Made by a program: the position numbers and the translations under genes
Notes under the pieces: model-generated
What the model was told of the DNA's origin: nothing
Seen by the model: the letters and a program-made list of their open reading frames with translations, nothing else
Databases searched by the model: none
Source of the DNA: Candidatus Nanohaloarchaea archaeon
GTDB lineage: Archaea; Nanohalarchaeota; Nanosalinia; Nanosalinales; Nanosalinaceae
NCBI GenBank assembly: GCA_042218325.1
Contig: JBDGRE010000001.1
Coordinates: forward strand, 68,356 to 132,355
DNA length: 64,000 bases
Reading direction: 5' to 3'
Shown here: piece by piece, positions 47,498 through 52,377 of the stretch
Position numbering within the stretch: the first letter of the stretch is position 1
How the letters are laid out: every line of letters begins with the position of its first letter

Positions 47498-48271
47498 ATG
47501 AAGGTAGAGAAGATAGGAGAAGGAGAACCAGAGTACACGGTCGTAGGGAGCCTCCACGGCGACGAGCCGTGCGGGAAAAAGGCTATCGAAAAGTTCCTGT
47601 CCGGGGACTGGGAACTCAAGAAACCCGTACAGTTCATCATAGCGAACGAGGAAGCTCACGAACAGGAAGTACGGTACCTCGATACGGATCTCAACAGGTC
47701 TTTCCCAGGCGACCCGGTAAGCGACAGCCACGAGGAGAGGCTGGCCGCGAGACTGCTGGAGCTGGTCAAGGGCACGAAGCTCATCGATTTCCACTCGACC
47801 CGGTCACAGGATGAGCCTTTCGCCACCACCTCCATCATGACGGAAGAGGTCCTGGAGCTCGCCCGGTCTTCTGGCGTCCGGGACGTGGCCTACTTCGGCG
47901 CGGAGTCCGGTGTGCTCAACGAAAGGGTGCCGGCGGTAACGGTAGAGGCCGGCAGGCAGGGAACAGAGCAAGCGGCGGAGAACGCCTACGGGATACTCGT
48001 CAATTTCCTGGCCGCGGAAGGTGTCATCGACGCGGATTACGAGCGCTCGGATATAGAGCTCTACATCTACTACGATACCGTCGAGGGCGGCGACCTTGAG
48101 TTCGTCGCAGAGAACTTCACCCTCGTCGAGGAGGGCGAGGTGTACGCCCGGAAGGATGGGGAAGAAATCAGGGCCGACGAGTACTTCTTCCCGATCCTGA
48201 TGTCGACCCATGGGTACGAGGACATCCTCGGCTACAAGGCCCAGAAGATAGATAAAGATGTCTACCTCTAG
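47498..48271 (+). CDS. Succinylglutamate desuccinylase/aspartoacylase family (M14)
   Basis: HGDEPCG, DLNRSFPG, IDFHST, VEAG. Confidence 0.85.
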   Translation: MKVEKIGEGEPEYTVVGSLHGDEPCGKKAIEKFLSGDWELKKPVQFIIANEEAHEQEVRYLDTDLNRSFPGDPVSDSHEERLAARLLELVKGTKLIDFHSTRSQDEPFATTSIMTEEVLELARSSGVRDVAYFGAESGVLNERVPAVTVEAGRQGTEQAAENAYGILVNFLAAEGVIDADYERSDIELYIYYDTVEGGDLEFVAENFTLVEEGEVYARKDGEEIRADEYFFPILMSTHGYEDILGYKAQKIDKDVYL

Positions 48272-48278
48272 GTAATTC

Positions 48279-48459
48279 ATGCGGCAGGGTGGACGTTTTT
48301 GGACCGCGCGCATCTCCCGATGACGTAGACAGCCGCTTTACGGTCCAGGGTGGATGTTCGGGCTCTTCTCGCACGCACGGCAGTTTATCTTTGACTGGTT
48401 CATACCTGCAGATCTGCGCTGTGCTGGAGGCTTCTTGGCGCAGAACATGGTATAGGTAA
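48279..48459 (+). promoter_or_regulatory. Extra Trp-type frameshift cassette (uORF 48279-48323; +1 frame to 48459)
   Basis: ATG CGG CAG GGT GGA CGT TTT TGG (MRQGGRFW). Confidence 0.5.
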
Positions 48460-48576
48460 TACAGGTACTTTCCGCCGATAAATATCGTAAAGAGCTGCTG
48501 GTATGCATTTTCAGGGCTTTTAGAGGCTTGAAAGCTACTTAAATCTTTTCTTACAACAGAAAAATACGTGAGTAAC

Positions 48577-48961
48577 ATGGCACACACCACTACGGACGAA
48601 GAAAATGCAGAAGCCCGCAAGGGTGGACGTTTTTGGAAAACCTAGCATAGAAGTGGTCGCAGACCTGGCGGACCCGACCCCAGTTTACGTTTCCGGCCAG
48701 CAGGACACCGGTTTCTACCGCGAGATAACCTGTGATGCCGACCTCGTGATCCTGAGGAACAAAGAGGAATTCTCGCAGGAACCCGGAGATATCCTCGACG
48801 GGGATTACAGGGAGCTGCTACAGAGGTCAGACCAGGATATCTACGTTCACGAGGACGCGCCCAGAGACTTCCCTGGGATGAACCCGTACGTGGTCGAAGG
48901 GCTGGCCGCCAGCGGCGTGGAAGAACTGGCGGAAGCCTACTTGGAGCAGGGCCATGAATAA
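48577..48961 (+). CDS. Hypothetical protein probably made by +1 frameshift at TTT-TGG (48631-48636); leader of trpS
   Basis: 0 frame MAHTTTDEENAEARKGGRFWKT* (48577-48645); +1 frame is the acidic ORF 48605-48961. Confidence 0.65.
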
Positions 48962-48986
48962 AATACCTGCCCGTGGAAGTGATTGA
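48954..48986 (+). CDS. 10-aa relay ORF into trpS
   Basis: ATGAATAA overlap with upstream stop; MNKIPARGSD; TGA-C-ATG into trpS. Confidence 0.45.
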   Translation: MNKIPARGSD

Positions 48987-48987
48987 C

Positions 48988-50097
48988 ATGCCAGACATAG
49001 ACCCGTGGGGAGACGTCGAGGTGGGAGACTACCGCGAAAAGATGGAGAAGTTCGGCATCGAACCAGTCGGCGAGATAGAGGACAGGATGCCGGACCACAG
49101 GTACGTCCGCCGCGGGATAATATTCGGTCACCGCGGCATGGACGAGTTCCTCGACGCCCGGGAAAACGGCGATAACGTGGCGATGATGACGGGTATCATG
49201 CCGTCCGGCGTCTTCCACATGGGCCACAAGTGCGTGGTCGACCAGGTCACGATGTACCAGGAGATGGGGGCCGACATCACCCTCGCGGCCGCGGATATAG
49301 AGGCTTACAACACCAGGGAGATGCCCATAGGGAAGGCCCGCGAACTTGTCATCGAGGAGTATCTGGCCAACTACGTGGCGCTCGGCCTCGACCTCGAGCA
49401 GACTGATTTCTACTTCCAGAGCCAGGCCGGCAACGACCACCACGCCCGGGCCAAGATGTTCGCTCGATACCTCACACAGAACGAGGTCGAATCCACGTAC
49501 GGCAGCGCCGCACCGGGGAAGATTACCTCCGCGCTGACGCAGTACGCCGACATACTGAGGCCCCAGTTCCCGGAGAACGGGGGCCCGAAGCCCACAGTCG
49601 TTCCTGTAGGCGTGGACCAGGATCCTCATATACGGCTGACAAGGGAGGTCGCACGCAAGTACCGCGGCCAAGGCTTTGTCAAGCCCGCCTCAACTTACAA
49701 CAAGTTCATGCGCGGGCTCCAGGGCGGCAAGATGTCGTCGAGCAAGCCCAAGAGCTACATCGCACTGACCGACGGTGTAGAAGATGCGAAGCAGAAGGTC
49801 GACGAGGCCAAGACCGGCGGCAGGGACACACTGGAGGAGCAGCGGGAGAAAGGTGCCCGGGTCAAGGAGGACATGGTCTTCGAGCTGCTTGCCTTCCACC
49901 TGATCGAGGACGACTCCGAGCTTGAACGCATCCGGGAAGAGTACAGCTCGGGAGAGATGCTCTCCGGCGAGCTGAAGCAGATAGCGAAGGAAAGACTGGA
50001 GGAGTTCCTGAGGGAGCACCAGCAGAAGCGTGAAGAGGCCCGTGCCGAGGTGGAGCAGTTCGTCCGCGAGAACGTTCCCGAGGGAGAACTGGTTTAA
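48988..50097 (+). CDS. trpS: Tryptophanyl-tRNA synthetase
   Basis: IDPWG, PSGVFHMGH (HIGH), PVGVDQDPH, KMSSS, AKTGGR. Confidence 0.95.
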   Translation: MPDIDPWGDVEVGDYREKMEKFGIEPVGEIEDRMPDHRYVRRGIIFGHRGMDEFLDARENGDNVAMMTGIMPSGVFHMGHKCVVDQVTMYQEMGADITLAAADIEAYNTREMPIGKARELVIEEYLANYVALGLDLEQTDFYFQSQAGNDHHARAKMFARYLTQNEVESTYGSAAPGKITSALTQYADILRPQFPENGGPKPTVVPVGVDQDPHIRLTREVARKYRGQGFVKPASTYNKFMRGLQGGKMSSSKPKSYIALTDGVEDAKQKVDEAKTGGRDTLEEQREKGARVKEDMVFELLAFHLIEDDSELERIREEYSSGEMLSGELKQIAKERLEEFLREHQQKREEARAEVEQFVRENVPEGELV

Positions 50098-50121
50098 GTC
50101 CGCACCGACTGTTTTTGAGGT

Positions 50122-50817
50122 ATGCTGCCCGAGCTTATACTGCGCGAGGAGGAGCACGAGAACCTCCCTCTGCTGGCACTGCTCGGTATCTTATCCGGGC
50201 TGCTCGGTTTCGCGGCCGCGAAGATGCTGTTCCCGTCGCAGGCCGACCTTCTCGGCGTGATATTCGCGTCGATACCGCTGATATTCCCACTCACGAGCTA
50301 TTTCCTTGAGCGTGAAAACGAGACAGCGCCGCACCTGCCCGAGGTCGAGGTCTACGGCTCGGTGTTCTTCGGCGAGGTCGTCGCGTTCTTCCTGCTCGGC
50401 ATGTACTTCCAGGACGCGTTCTCGCTCCAGAACCAGATAATAGGTGCGACCGGCAACGCGGTCAACGCTGTCTCGTTTATGTCTATACTTTCCAACAACC
50501 TGATGGTTTTCCTCGGTATCCTGGTCGTCGCCTCGGTGATTGGCTCCGCGGGTGCGTTCGTCCTGACCTGGAACGCATCGGTGCTCGGAGTCTTCTTCGC
50601 CGACCTTTTCAGGGAGTCCGCCATCAAACCGCTGGCTTACGTCCCCCACGCCACGTTCGAGATGGGAGGCTTCATAATCGCCGGCATCTCCGGTTCCATG
50701 ATATCCGCCGCGCTGTACCGCGAGCATTTCGAGAGGGATACCTGGATCGATATAGCGCAACTCGTCGCCGCGGGCCTTCTGCTTATACTGTTCGGGGCGT
50801 TCCTGGAGACGGCTTAA
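50122..50817 (+). CDS. Stage II sporulation protein M (SpoIIM)-like membrane protein
   Basis: ILSNNL, WNASVLG, PHATFE, GAFLE. Confidence 0.75.
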   Translation: MLPELILREEEHENLPLLALLGILSGLLGFAAAKMLFPSQADLLGVIFASIPLIFPLTSYFLERENETAPHLPEVEVYGSVFFGEVVAFFLLGMYFQDAFSLQNQIIGATGNAVNAVSFMSILSNNLMVFLGILVVASVIGSAGAFVLTWNASVLGVFFADLFRESAIKPLAYVPHATFEMGGFIIAGISGSMISAALYREHFERDTWIDIAQLVAAGLLLILFGAFLETA

Positions 50818-50847: not shown

Positions 50848-50974
50848 ATGACCGCAGGAACACGTTTACCAACTGGTCCCACCGACTACAAGGGTGGATG
50901 TTTTTTCCGGGGATAGACCCTGCCACGGCTGCGCTGAAATATTAAAGGTTAATCGGCGAGGTGTATCGCTGTGA
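50848..50974 (+). promoter_or_regulatory. pheS leader: uORF 50848-50916 with putative +1 shift site TTT-TTC; +1 frame ends on pheS GTGA
   Basis: MTAGTRLPTGPTDYKGGCFFRG*; AAG GGT GGA TGT TTT TTC at 50890-50907; +1 frame open 22 codons to TGA 50972-50974. Confidence 0.78.
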
Positions 50975-52377
50975 GACTCTCGAGCCAGGCAGCACAGATA
51001 CTCGAAGAGCTACGCGGCCGTGGAGAGGCCACGGTCGAGGCGCTGGAGAAAGAGGGCTACGACCAGTCGATGGTTCACAGGGCGGCGCTGGAGCTTCAGG
51101 AGAAAGGCCTCGTGGAGTACGAGGAAGAGGAGGAGATAGTGCACCAGATGACGGATAAAGGCCGTGAGGTCATCGAGAACGGCTCACCGGAGCACCGCCT
51201 CGTCCAGAGACTGGAGGACTCCGGGAAACAGATGTCGGAGCTCCAGGACCTGGACCTCGACGTCGCTCTTGGAAAGGCCCGGGAGAAGGGATGGGTCGAA
51301 ATCGAGAACGGCGAGGTCGAGCTCACCGGCGACGGCGAGGCGAACCTCGACACGGATCCTGCCCAGAGGAGGCTGGAGAGCCGCGAGTTCGACGAAGACC
51401 TGCGGGAACGCGGGCTGGTAGAGGCCGTGAACCAGACGGAACGCGTGGTAAGACTCACGCAGGAGGGCCGGTCGCTGGCGGAATCCGAGATAGAGGAAGA
51501 GTTCAACCTTGAGGCCCGTGTGAAGACGCCGAGGACAGGAAAGAAGCACTTCTACAAACAGATAATCGACTACGCCCGGAGGAAGTGGGTAGAGATGGGG
51601 TTCGAGGAGATGAGCGGCGACTTCGTAGTCCCGAGCTTTCTCAACTTCGACGCGCTCTACACGCCGCAGGATCACCCGGCCCGGGAGATGCAGGACACCT
51701 TCTTCATGGAAACGCCTGCTGTATCAGACATAACCGGCTACGATGTGAAGGTGGAGAACGTGAAGAACACCCACGAGAACGGGTGGATCACGGGCAGCGA
51801 CGGCTGGGGCTACGAGTGGTCGCGTGAAGAGGCGGAGAGAAACGTGCTGAGAACACATACTACCGCGGTTTCTATCCGCAGGATACACGAGATAGAGGTG
51901 AACGAGGAGGAGCTGCCGAGAAAATTCTTCACGGTCTCAAGAAACTTCAGGAACGAGACGGTCGACAGGTTCCACCTAGCAGAGTTCTACCAGACCGACG
52001 GCATAGTGGTCGGCGAAGACCTCAGCTTCCGCGACCTGAAGGGATACATAAGCGAGTTCTTCGAGAAGATGGGCTACGACGACTTCCGCCTGGTACCGTC
52101 CTACTTCCCTTACACCGAGATGAGTGTGGAGGTCCACGTCTGGGACGAGAAAGACGGAGAGTGGGTCGCTCTCGGAGGCGCAGGAATGTTCAGGCCTGAG
52201 GTCGTGAATTCGATGCTCGGCTTCGAGGCAACAGTGCTCGCCTGGGGTCTCGGCATCCCGAGGATAGCCATGGGTGCCGCGGAACTGGAAGATATACGTG
52301 AGCTGTACAGGAACGACGTAGAGATACTCGAGAACACGCCGGCCTGGAGGCCGCAGAACATGGAGGGTGAAGGATAG
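50971..52377 (+). CDS. pheS: Phenylalanyl-tRNA synthetase alpha subunit
   Basis: NFDALYTPQDHPAREMQDTF, LRTHTT, FRNE, YFPYTE, GMFRPE, AWGLG. Confidence 0.96.
   Translation: MRLSSQAAQILEELRGRGEATVEALEKEGYDQSMVHRAALELQEKGLVEYEEEEEIVHQMTDKGREVIENGSPEHRLVQRLEDSGKQMSELQDLDLDVALGKAREKGWVEIENGEVELTGDGEANLDTDPAQRRLESREFDEDLRERGLVEAVNQTERVVRLTQEGRSLAESEIEEEFNLEARVKTPRTGKKHFYKQIIDYARRKWVEMGFEEMSGDFVVPSFLNFDALYTPQDHPAREMQDTFFMETPAVSDITGYDVKVENVKNTHENGWITGSDGWGYEWSREEAERNVLRTHTTAVSIRRIHEIEVNEEELPRKFFTVSRNFRNETVDRFHLAEFYQTDGIVVGEDLSFRDLKGYISEFFEKMGYDDFRLVPSYFPYTEMSVEVHVWDEKDGEWVALGGAGMFRPEVVNSMLGFEATVLAWGLGIPRIAMGAAELEDIRELYRNDVEILENTPAWRPQNMEGEG

Follow-up and report, generated by a model that had tools for sequence, protein, structure and literature searches.

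The gene for tryptophanyl-tRNA synthetase (trpS) lies, in a 64,000-nucleotide stretch of contig JBDGRE010000001.1 from a Candidatus Nanohaloarchaea archaeon (hereafter the window; source genome G000, 1.07 Mb, 55% G+C), behind short leader open reading frames (ORFs). With a probability that we put at roughly 70%, these leaders are one case of an amino-acid-specific sensor used across the Nanohaloarchaeota, in which a ribosome waiting at a hungry codon would shift into the +1 frame. Leaders of this phylum presented a common anatomy around a conserved motif, a sensor codon that matches the gene downstream, an obligatory T at the first base of that codon, and a +1 frame that is selectively kept open. 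The initial annotation of the stretch had proposed a TTT-to-TTT +1 slip at a Trp codon, joining the leader ORF 48577-48645 to an acidic, Trp-free frame and leading from there, by two reinitiation steps through a 10-codon relay ORF, into trpS. All the sequence features named in that proposal were present: the leader ORF with its T5 run and TTT 48631, the 108-codon +1 frame ending at 48961, the overlap of its stop with the start of MNKIPARGSD, and the TGA of the latter one base before the trpS ATG at 48988 (Table 1). The interpretation was partly supported, its core being right and the relay wrong, and the device was found to extend to pheS, to serS and to a second copy before trpS (48279-48459).

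According to the mechanism that we propose, a transcript would start a few bases 5' of the short leader ORF, and the ribosome would read ...GGU GGA YGY UUU and then one sensor codon (X) for the amino acid of the downstream gene, which in the window would be UGG before trpS and UUC before pheS. When the charged tRNA is plentiful the sensor codon would be decoded and the leader would end 2-20 codons further on, far from the gene, whereas with scarce charged tRNA the A site would stay empty and the peptidyl-tRNA-Phe (anticodon GAA) would slip from UUU to the overlapping UUU and enter the +1 frame, possibly aided by a Shine-Dalgarno (SD)-like GGGUGG upstream. The +1 frame would be either the regulated enzyme itself or a reading frame ending on or next to the start of a synthetase gene, where terminating ribosomes would reinitiate; for trpS it would be the 108-codon body of ORF118, which ends 26 nt before the ATG, just 5' of the SD. 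We infer the slip, its dependence on tRNA charging and the reinitiation from the sequence features described below.

The slip site lies within an exact 18-nt direct repeat (AGGGTGGACGTTTTTGGA; copies at 48286 and 48620), a related copy of which precedes pheS at 50891, and the arrangement was beyond chance. The window contains two occurrences of the exact 17/18-nt repeat (48286/7 and 48620/1), where 0.12 would be expected, two matches being obtained in 0 of 100 shuffles, and the core GGTGGAYGTT appeared four times, always 5' of trpS or pheS (0.19 expected). The looser GGTGGAYGYKT gave seven matches in the whole G000 genome, four of them good ones (two at trpS, one at pheS and one at serS). Read in the frame of the leader ATG, the G000 copies have the form AAG/CAG GGT GGA YGT TTT X, where X is TGG in both trpS copies, TTC at pheS and TCC at serS, and their 0 frame ends within a few codons; the phylum-wide form is GGT GGA YGY TTT X. 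The 70 genomes searched comprise the nanohaloarchaeal order and, equally, the phylum. In them GGTGGAYGTTTTT produced 84 matches, in 43 genomes, as compared with 6 for the reversed control, and these correspond to 83 distinct instances. The synonymous variant GGTGGAYGCTTTT (the YGC set), gathered once the hypothesis existed and scored identically, produced 26 matches vs. 3 for the control. The codon before TTT was CGT, TGT, CGC, TGC or TAT, its amino acid varying among R, C and Y and its third base being a pyrimidine. Over 185,579 species, a 19-nt form of the motif gave 40 matches, of which 21 were titled nanohaloarchaeal or "uncultured archaeon" and one further match has the same leader type under a different title; the other 18 were scattered bacteria without leader features.

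The sensor codon agreed with the identity of the gene downstream. The 110 pooled instances were scored by the first recognised downstream gene (Pfam on representatives, then tblastn to representatives). All 14 instances with a Tyr codon at X preceded tyrosyl-tRNA synthetase (TyrRS) and all five with a Cys codon preceded CysRS. Ser codons (n = 28) were followed by SerRS in 21 cases, by HerA-like and TauE genes in two each and by no recognised gene in three, and Phe codons (n = 6) by the PheRS alpha chain in three and by a GCS2-like gene, an AstE-like gene and a 365-aa protein of no named family in one each. Behind the Trp codons (n = 55) stood TrpRS (13), a GNAT-like 242-aa family (11), TrpB (6), M20 peptidase (4), IMPase-like (3), aminotransferase (3), TrpE (2), GCS2-like (2), ORF118 (2), TrpD (1), PPDK_N-like (1), a 358-aa unnamed protein (1), 205-aa unnamed proteins (2) and no recognised gene (4). 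The two Leu instances presented neither a gene nor leader features. No synthetase was found behind a foreign codon among the 110 instances, and the YGC set alone agreed (Tyr 2/2, Ser 6/6).

The bases around the TTT pointed to the direction of the slip. The first base of X was fixed as T (84 matches vs. 6 for the control), while patterns with A, C or G at this place gave 15 matches vs. 26 for the control; by construction of the pattern, TTT is followed by T in 110/110 pooled instances. The T directly 5' of TTT can be replaced by C. A fixed T 3' of TTT together with a variable base 5' of it fits a +1 and not a -1 slip, and the obligatory T would account for the restriction of the device to Trp, Phe, Ser, Tyr and Cys. 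The single tRNA-Phe has the anticodon GAA.

Only the +1 frame proved to be open as far as the regulated gene. In 43 of the 43 leaders directly before CysRS, TyrRS, SerRS or PheRS, the +1 frame had its stop at most 20 nt from the start codon of the synthetase, as compared with 2/43 for the +2 frame and 0/43 for the 0 frame, across spacers of 72-330 nt; the 0-frame stop of synthetase-linked leaders falls 21-84 nt past the GGT of the motif. Stop and start codons often overlapped, as ATGA in 5/5 CysRS leaders, mostly as ATGCTTGA for SerRS and as GTGA for pheS in the window. Some enzymes are fused to the +1 frame. TrpD (L059) and the aminotransferase (L091) showed no ATG, GTG or TTG in their first 90 codons, and the GNAT-like ORF of L077 no start codon before codon 72. 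In the first 70 codons of the GNAT-like ORF the ratio of non-synonymous to synonymous changes (pN/pS) was 0.16 in the +1 frame vs. more than 1.7 in the other two, which also contain stops. Tyr codons were absent from the +1 ORFs of Y-type leaders (0/377 vs. 4.0% in the other classes). These results, together with the codon-gene match and the obligatory T, argue for the TTT-to-TTT slip at the Trp codon that the initial annotation had put forward.

A leader would usually begin a transcript. An in-frame leader ATG was present in 78 of the 83 distinct instances, and a TATA-like pentamer was located 26-40 nt 5' of it in 62/78, vs. 7/112 for random ATGs. Among the five leaders lacking an ATG, four are second in a series and are fed by the +1 frame of the upstream copy, and the fifth (L083) looks spurious. 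Sensors in series were found in L066 (three W-type before trpB), in L086 (two S-type), in L091 and L156 (two W-type before an aminotransferase) and for G001 in L005. In such a series the +1 frame of one sensor leads into the 0 frame of its successor, so that a ribosome would have to shift two or three times in a row, and the response would be steeper. Where the T-run has been lost, the frame has been adjusted: the decayed copy 1b of the window reads straight into the conserved peptide described below, whereas G001 would need a +1 shift at its intact copy, and in L058 the run has become GCGTTTGG and an in-frame ATG has been gained.

The leading alternative, which we hold to be unlikely, is that the leader ORF stalls at X without any slip, the read-out being, for instance, transcription termination, polarity or mRNA stability, and that the +1 ORFs start at the GTG of the motif, the only other start candidate available to them. 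The codon-gene match would be equally expected in this case, as it needs decoding of X and not a slip, and gene callers do place the start at the motif GTG. T5 runs are archaeal transcription termination signals and could explain the T-run, and the W-type leaders that come first in a series lead to a conserved Trp-ending peptide resembling a second stalling site. Nevertheless, the GTG lies 11 nt 5' of X and would be hidden under a ribosome waiting there, so that starvation would block the start, contrary to what TrpD, TrpE, TrpB and the synthetases would require. The GTG is moreover replaced by GGG in copy 2 of G001, where the +1 frame then has no start codon at this place, and in one copy of G007 (L068, position 2205), and in the minimal leaders (MKGGRF-X) 7 nt separate it from the leader ATG and it lacks an SD on its 5' side. 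Stalling without slip would also leave unexplained the 43/43 open +1 frames and the fixed slip base as opposed to the T/C-variable 5' base, and no conserved structure was found that could accompany it.

Second in standing, and somewhat less probable still, is the view that the sensor in the window is vestigial, ORF118 being translated from ATG 48605 or GTG 48623 and trpS from its own SD and promoter. The initiation at ATG 48605 had already been named in the initial annotation as the competing explanation; this ATG is present and in frame in the window, but it is not conserved in G001 (same genus), which retains the leader. Also in line with independent expression are the trpS SD GGAAGTGAT and the AATAAAATA element 23-31 nt before the trpS ATG, which might direct a basal trpS transcript as its TATA box, as well as the decay of copy 1b and the poor conservation of ORF118. 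On the other side, both W-type copies of the window are exact over 18 nt and have preserved the ATG, the TGG and the early 0-frame stop, and the order of +1 stop, 26-nt gap and SD recurs in G012 and G050. As compared with the window, G001 has kept the promoter-like block, the leader ATG, the motif and the TGG, and has diverged in the sequence beyond the motif.

An element acting as DNA or as protein-free RNA (a transcription factor site, an oligo-T terminator or a T-box-like tRNA-binding RNA) with incidental ORFs would suit a motif that is conserved at the nucleotide level, sits in intergenic DNA behind co-directional genes and resembles the conserved core of T-boxes, but we consider it very improbable, given that the triplet behind TTT varies with the identity of the downstream gene, in the frame of the leader ATG, that the position before TTT encodes R, C or Y through T- or C-ending codons with the frame kept, and that no Rfam match, conserved structure or covariation was detected. 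Rfam, T-box included, returned nothing for 47500-50500 at E values up to 1; RNAalifold on 14 serS leaders gave -2.25 kcal/mol with four pairs, none of them covarying, and no consensus structure; and the folding stability of four stretches of the window was nothing unusual (z-scores of 0.52, 0.08, -0.67 and -0.17). A T-box or other known leader RNA was consequently rejected for want of an Rfam match, and hairpin attenuation, SD masking and a downstream stimulatory structure for want of a conserved structure or unusual stability. The idea of a transcription factor site placed 5' of a second promoter leaves the codon match unexplained, and all that was retained of it is a possible second, basal promoter. 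Transcriptional slippage was rejected by reasoning, because the T4-T6 runs are short and the next codon could not be read by such a process.

Several observations weigh against a +1 frameshift sensor and have to be set beside the evidence in its favour. The chance of the codon-gene match was estimated at about 1 in 10,000 (five independent classes, 13 sense codons starting with T, hand arithmetic), but the genomes are related and the instances are not independent samples. Nine of the 110 instances resemble background (TauE, HerA, the two L-type and three without a recognised gene), the four HerA and TauE cases having the appearance of chance matches inside ORFs or at ORF starts. Ser codons were only mildly depleted in the +1 ORFs of S-type leaders (6.1 vs. 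9.6%), and the W-type +1 ORFs that are first in a series carry a conserved Trp near their end. Gene callers start +1 ORFs at the motif GTG (P0001, P0002 and P0008 begin MDVFG). The +1 frame closes in G001 after 17 codons, the homologous ORF lying in another frame behind a G6 run, which is either decay or an assembly error. As regards the putative stimulator, the GGGUGG located 4 nt before UUU can pair over 6 bp (two of them G-U) with the UCACCU of the 16S rRNA 3' end, as read from G001 and G018 (the 16S rRNA was not found in the G000 assembly). The register of this pairing gives a near-normal distance from SD to P site, which makes a stimulatory role uncertain, and we know of no demonstration that an internal SD acts on elongating archaeal ribosomes. 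A promoter-like block is conserved before the synthetase start in S- and Y-type leaders, and AT-rich, TATA-like blocks were found between the motif and serS, tyrS, pheS and trpS, so that independent expression of the synthetases is likely and the sensor may add to a basal level and not be the sole route. Locally, ORF118 has an in-frame ATG of its own (48605), and a good SD precedes trpS, perhaps together with a separate TATA-like element.

ORF118, the predicted product of the slip before trpS, is acidic (25 D/E, 7 K/R) and free of Trp. The initial annotation had regarded it as a protein induced by Trp starvation. One 91%-identical homologue of this trans-frame protein (P0001, annotated from the motif GTG) turned up among 5.8 billion clusters, and there was no Pfam match. 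ORF118 is also weakly similar to family A3, ORFs of 88-122 codons from other genera that occupy the corresponding position, are acidic and mostly lack Trp; the profile of this family gave eight matches in 1.84 billion representatives. The search of 40 relatives at E values up to 0.01 returned nothing but one chance-level match, no homologue was present in metagenome contigs, no ESM Atlas match was obtained at 0.9 or above, and no profile link joined ORF118 to the GNAT-like 242-aa family (hhalign probability 0.2). The AlphaFold2 model contained no confident fold (mean predicted local distance difference test score, 35.5). In two related pairs the pN/pS was 0.5-0.75. ORF118 may represent a small protein that evolves fast, or it may serve mainly as a translated spacer; it would be, at best, a weak, lineage-restricted protein. 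The members of family A3 are small acidic proteins, about 90-120 aa long, encoded behind W-type sensors and, in the case of L086 (2107-2409, minus strand), behind S-type ones. The L086 member contains one Ser in 101 residues, and the W-linked members are Trp-free except that of G001.

The relay proposed between ORF118 and trpS was not borne out. The ORF118 stop is separated from the trpS ATG by a 26-nt gap that holds the SD, and this arrangement of TAA, 26-nt gap and SD is common to G012 and G050. The 10-codon ORF was missing in G001, G012, G050 and G014, and in G014 a 39-codon +1 ORF is coupled directly to trpS as TAAcATG. As the 10-codon ORF is not shared among relatives, two reinitiation steps are not supported; a single reinitiation, or independent initiation at the SD, would be enough for trpS.

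The +1 ORF of leader A ends in a different type of product. A peptide (S/N)YLxI..(V/I)..xSW with a stop nearby was present, at the end of +1 ORFs that come first in a series, in 16 of 23 short ORFs compared (counted by eye), with codons varying synonymously. Its recurrence across many genera with synonymous codon changes indicates that it has been selected as a +1-frame peptide, and it may act as a second, arrest-type Trp checkpoint. In its fuller form the peptide reads (S/N)YLxI(S/A)(S/A)(V/I)KxxSW, with the stop within a few codons; the W-type leaders that bear it are those of L005, L011, L034, L041, L048, L049, L052, L056, L058, L062, L063, L066, L072, L074, L089 and L093.

Positions of the leaders, motif copies and genes in the window are collected in Table 1.

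Table 1. Features of the trpS and pheS region (window positions).
Feature	Position	Strand	Remarks
TATA-like GATAAAG, putative promoter	48251..48257	+	About 25 nt 5' of the leader A ATG; assigned by analogy with the TATA survey of 78 leaders
Leader A, 0 frame MRQGGRFWTARISR and stop, first Trp sensor	48279..48323	+	Contains motif copy 1 (48286-48303)
Leader A +1 ORF, 52 codons and TAA	48301..48459	+	Ends in SYLQICAVLEASWRRTWYR and stop
Decayed second sensor (copy 1b) within leader A +1 ORF	48346-48358	+	T-run gone
Peptide SYLQICAVLEASW within leader A +1 ORF	48400-48438	+	Conserved in W-type leaders that come first in a series
TATA-like CTTAAAT, putative promoter	48538..48544	+	33-38 nt 5' of the leader B ATG; block and ATG kept in G001
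Leader B, 0 frame MAHTTTDEENAEARKGGRFWKT and stop	48577..48645	+	Counterpart in G001 is MTNDTQDETQAEARQGGCFWRTKS and stop
Motif copy 2	48620..48637	+	SD-like GGGTGG 48621-48626, CGT 48628-48630, TTT 48631-48633, sensor TGG 48634-48636
T5 run of leader B	48630-48634		
Leader B +1 ORF (ORF118 body), 108 codons and TAA	48635..48961	+	Opens with GKPSIEV; TAA at 48959-48961; acidic, Trp-free
10-codon ORF MNKIPARGSD and stop	48954..48986	+	First bases overlap the AATAAAATA element; not conserved
ATGAATAA, overlap of ORF118 stop and 10-codon ORF start	48954-48961	+	
AATAAAATA element	48957-48965	+	23-31 nt 5' of the trpS ATG
trpS SD GGAAGTGAT	48975..48983	+	Complementary to the 16S rRNA 3' end; GGAAGTGATT in G012 and G050
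trpS, tryptophanyl-tRNA synthetase	48988..50097	+	Pfam tRNA-synt_1b, E 6.8e-39, residues 62-341
pheS leader, 0 frame MTAGTRLPTGPTDYKGGCFFRG and stop	50848..50916	+	Motif 50891-50908, sensor TTC 50905-50907
pheS leader +1 ORF, 22 codons	50906..50974	+	TGA overlaps the pheS GTG start (50971) as GTGA
pheS, PheRS alpha chain	50971..52377	+	Named by eye from the translation; relatives follow F-type leaders in L005 and L092

Full-length matches of TrpRS in family relatives showed 76-81% identity, and the relatives start with MPEIDPWG. The gene 5' of the trpS leaders (47498-48271) is succinylglutamate desuccinylase/aspartoacylase-like (Pfam AstE_AspA_cat, E 5.4e-13), and a relative of it stands behind an F-type sensor in L031. 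The serS gene of G000 lies outside the window and carries an S-type sensor, on contig C1 at about 64540-64640 of the minus strand, 3.7 kb before the window start; its leader reads MKGGRFSVRHVRE followed by a stop, the 24-codon +1 ORF ends in ATGCTTGA over the serS start, and glyA comes after serS. No such leader was found upstream of tyrS and cysS of G000. The serS leader on a contig titled as a Colwellia metagenome-assembled genome (L124) is of nanohaloarchaeal type and agrees with that of L054 in peptide and junction; the contig is probably mis-binned.

Searches with the proteins of relatives found no TrpB, TrpD, TrpE, GCS2 or GNAT-like gene in G000, and with no detectable trpB, trpD or trpE TrpRS is the sole clear Trp-related target in this genome. 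Elsewhere the W regulon takes in (once under an F-type sensor) GCS2-like ligases, IMPase-like proteins, M20 peptidases, a PPDK_N-like protein and the GNAT-like 242-aa family (L068, L082, L081, L050, L056, L067, L161 and L048), which are candidate amino-acid salvage functions in organisms mostly without biosynthesis. A downstream block CAAAACCT..TTCTAG.. and, 3' of the sensor codon, a CGG(C/T)ACGT stretch are common to S- and Y-type leaders, suggesting that one class arose from the other by a change of sensor codon; the common block could function as a second promoter. A related motif, AGGGTGGAYGCGTT(T/C), with GTT replacing TTT, was detected before trpS in G031 (L015), in L018 and, in G000, on contig C14 near 16040 (minus strand) before a gene without assigned identity; such sites may represent a decayed or differently tuned sensor. 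Two further candidates were discarded: GGAGGCGTTTTTTGAC on contig C13, considered as a stop-codon version of the sensor, is by our reading antisense to a gene, and a target-site duplication of a mobile element was rejected as the origin of the 18-nt repeat (copies 334 bp apart) because the motif precedes unrelated genes with a matching codon.

To our knowledge, little has been established on the way in which archaea adjust synthetase levels and the supply of amino acids to demand. If the proposed mechanism is true, it would constitute a simple feedback device for a phylum of tiny host-dependent archaea, readable from sequence and retargeted by one codon, and it would give a mechanistic reason for the restriction to U-starting codons. 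In annotation, calls based on GTG would give TrpD and similar enzymes wrong N-termini or leave them without a start, and the design is small enough for a synthetic amino-acid sensor. The passages of a 2016 review on frameshifting that deal with starvation treat starvation-specific trans-frame products as conceivable, with no natural examples known (PMC5009743), and a 2021 review of archaeal recoding mentions, in the part relevant here, one cellular frameshift, of the -1 type, and a +1 case in a virus only (PMC8211752). Set against these accounts, the sensor would be the first natural use of hungry-codon frameshifting in gene control and the first cellular +1 programmed frameshift in archaea. 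No published description of the element was found in a full-text literature search (read at abstract level).

We consider it probable, with slightly less assurance than the sensor itself, that the element is a modular, ribosome-based counterpart of the T-box, in which one specifier codon would turn a shortage of charged tRNA into a +1 shift that switches on the matching enzyme. T-boxes and classical attenuators are bacterial. It has in common with the T-box a modular design, a place 5' of many synthetase and amino-acid genes and retargeting by a single specifier codon; the T-box binds uncharged tRNA through a large structured RNA, whereas here a translating ribosome would read the codon. With the attenuators of trpL, pheL and hisL it has in common a short leader ORF whose cognate codon senses charged tRNA, and trp genes and synthetases as targets, but attenuators use terminator and antiterminator hairpins and runs of cognate codons, whereas here there is one codon, a slippery run and a conserved +1 frame. 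Because there is no structured RNA, the element falls outside what defines T-boxes and attenuators alike. Close in anatomy is prfB, the autoregulatory +1 frameshift of bacterial release factor 2, where a slow 0-frame codon reports on the regulated function, the P-site tRNA slips +1 on NUU U with an SD-like element a few bases upstream, and the 0 frame ends at once while the +1 frame gives the product. In the nanohaloarchaeal leaders, in contrast, the sensor is a sense codon and not a stop, the leader is a separate ORF re-aimed at five amino acids by one codon, the output would often be reinitiation downstream, the host is an archaeon and the SD-like register differs. Hungry-codon shifting (Gallant) and Ty1, in the part of the 2016 review concerned with them, share the +1 slip of the P-site tRNA while the A site awaits a scarce aminoacyl-tRNA (PMC5009743). 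The former is an artefact of starvation in the laboratory, and the latter belongs to a retrotransposon adapted to a rare tRNA. Finally, antizyme (OAZ), as presented in part of the same review, likewise uses a regulatory +1 shift to sense a small-molecule pool in a feedback loop (PMC5009743); it senses polyamines, is eukaryotic and shifts at a stop codon, whereas the leaders described here would shift at a sense codon whose amino acid is that of the gene they precede.

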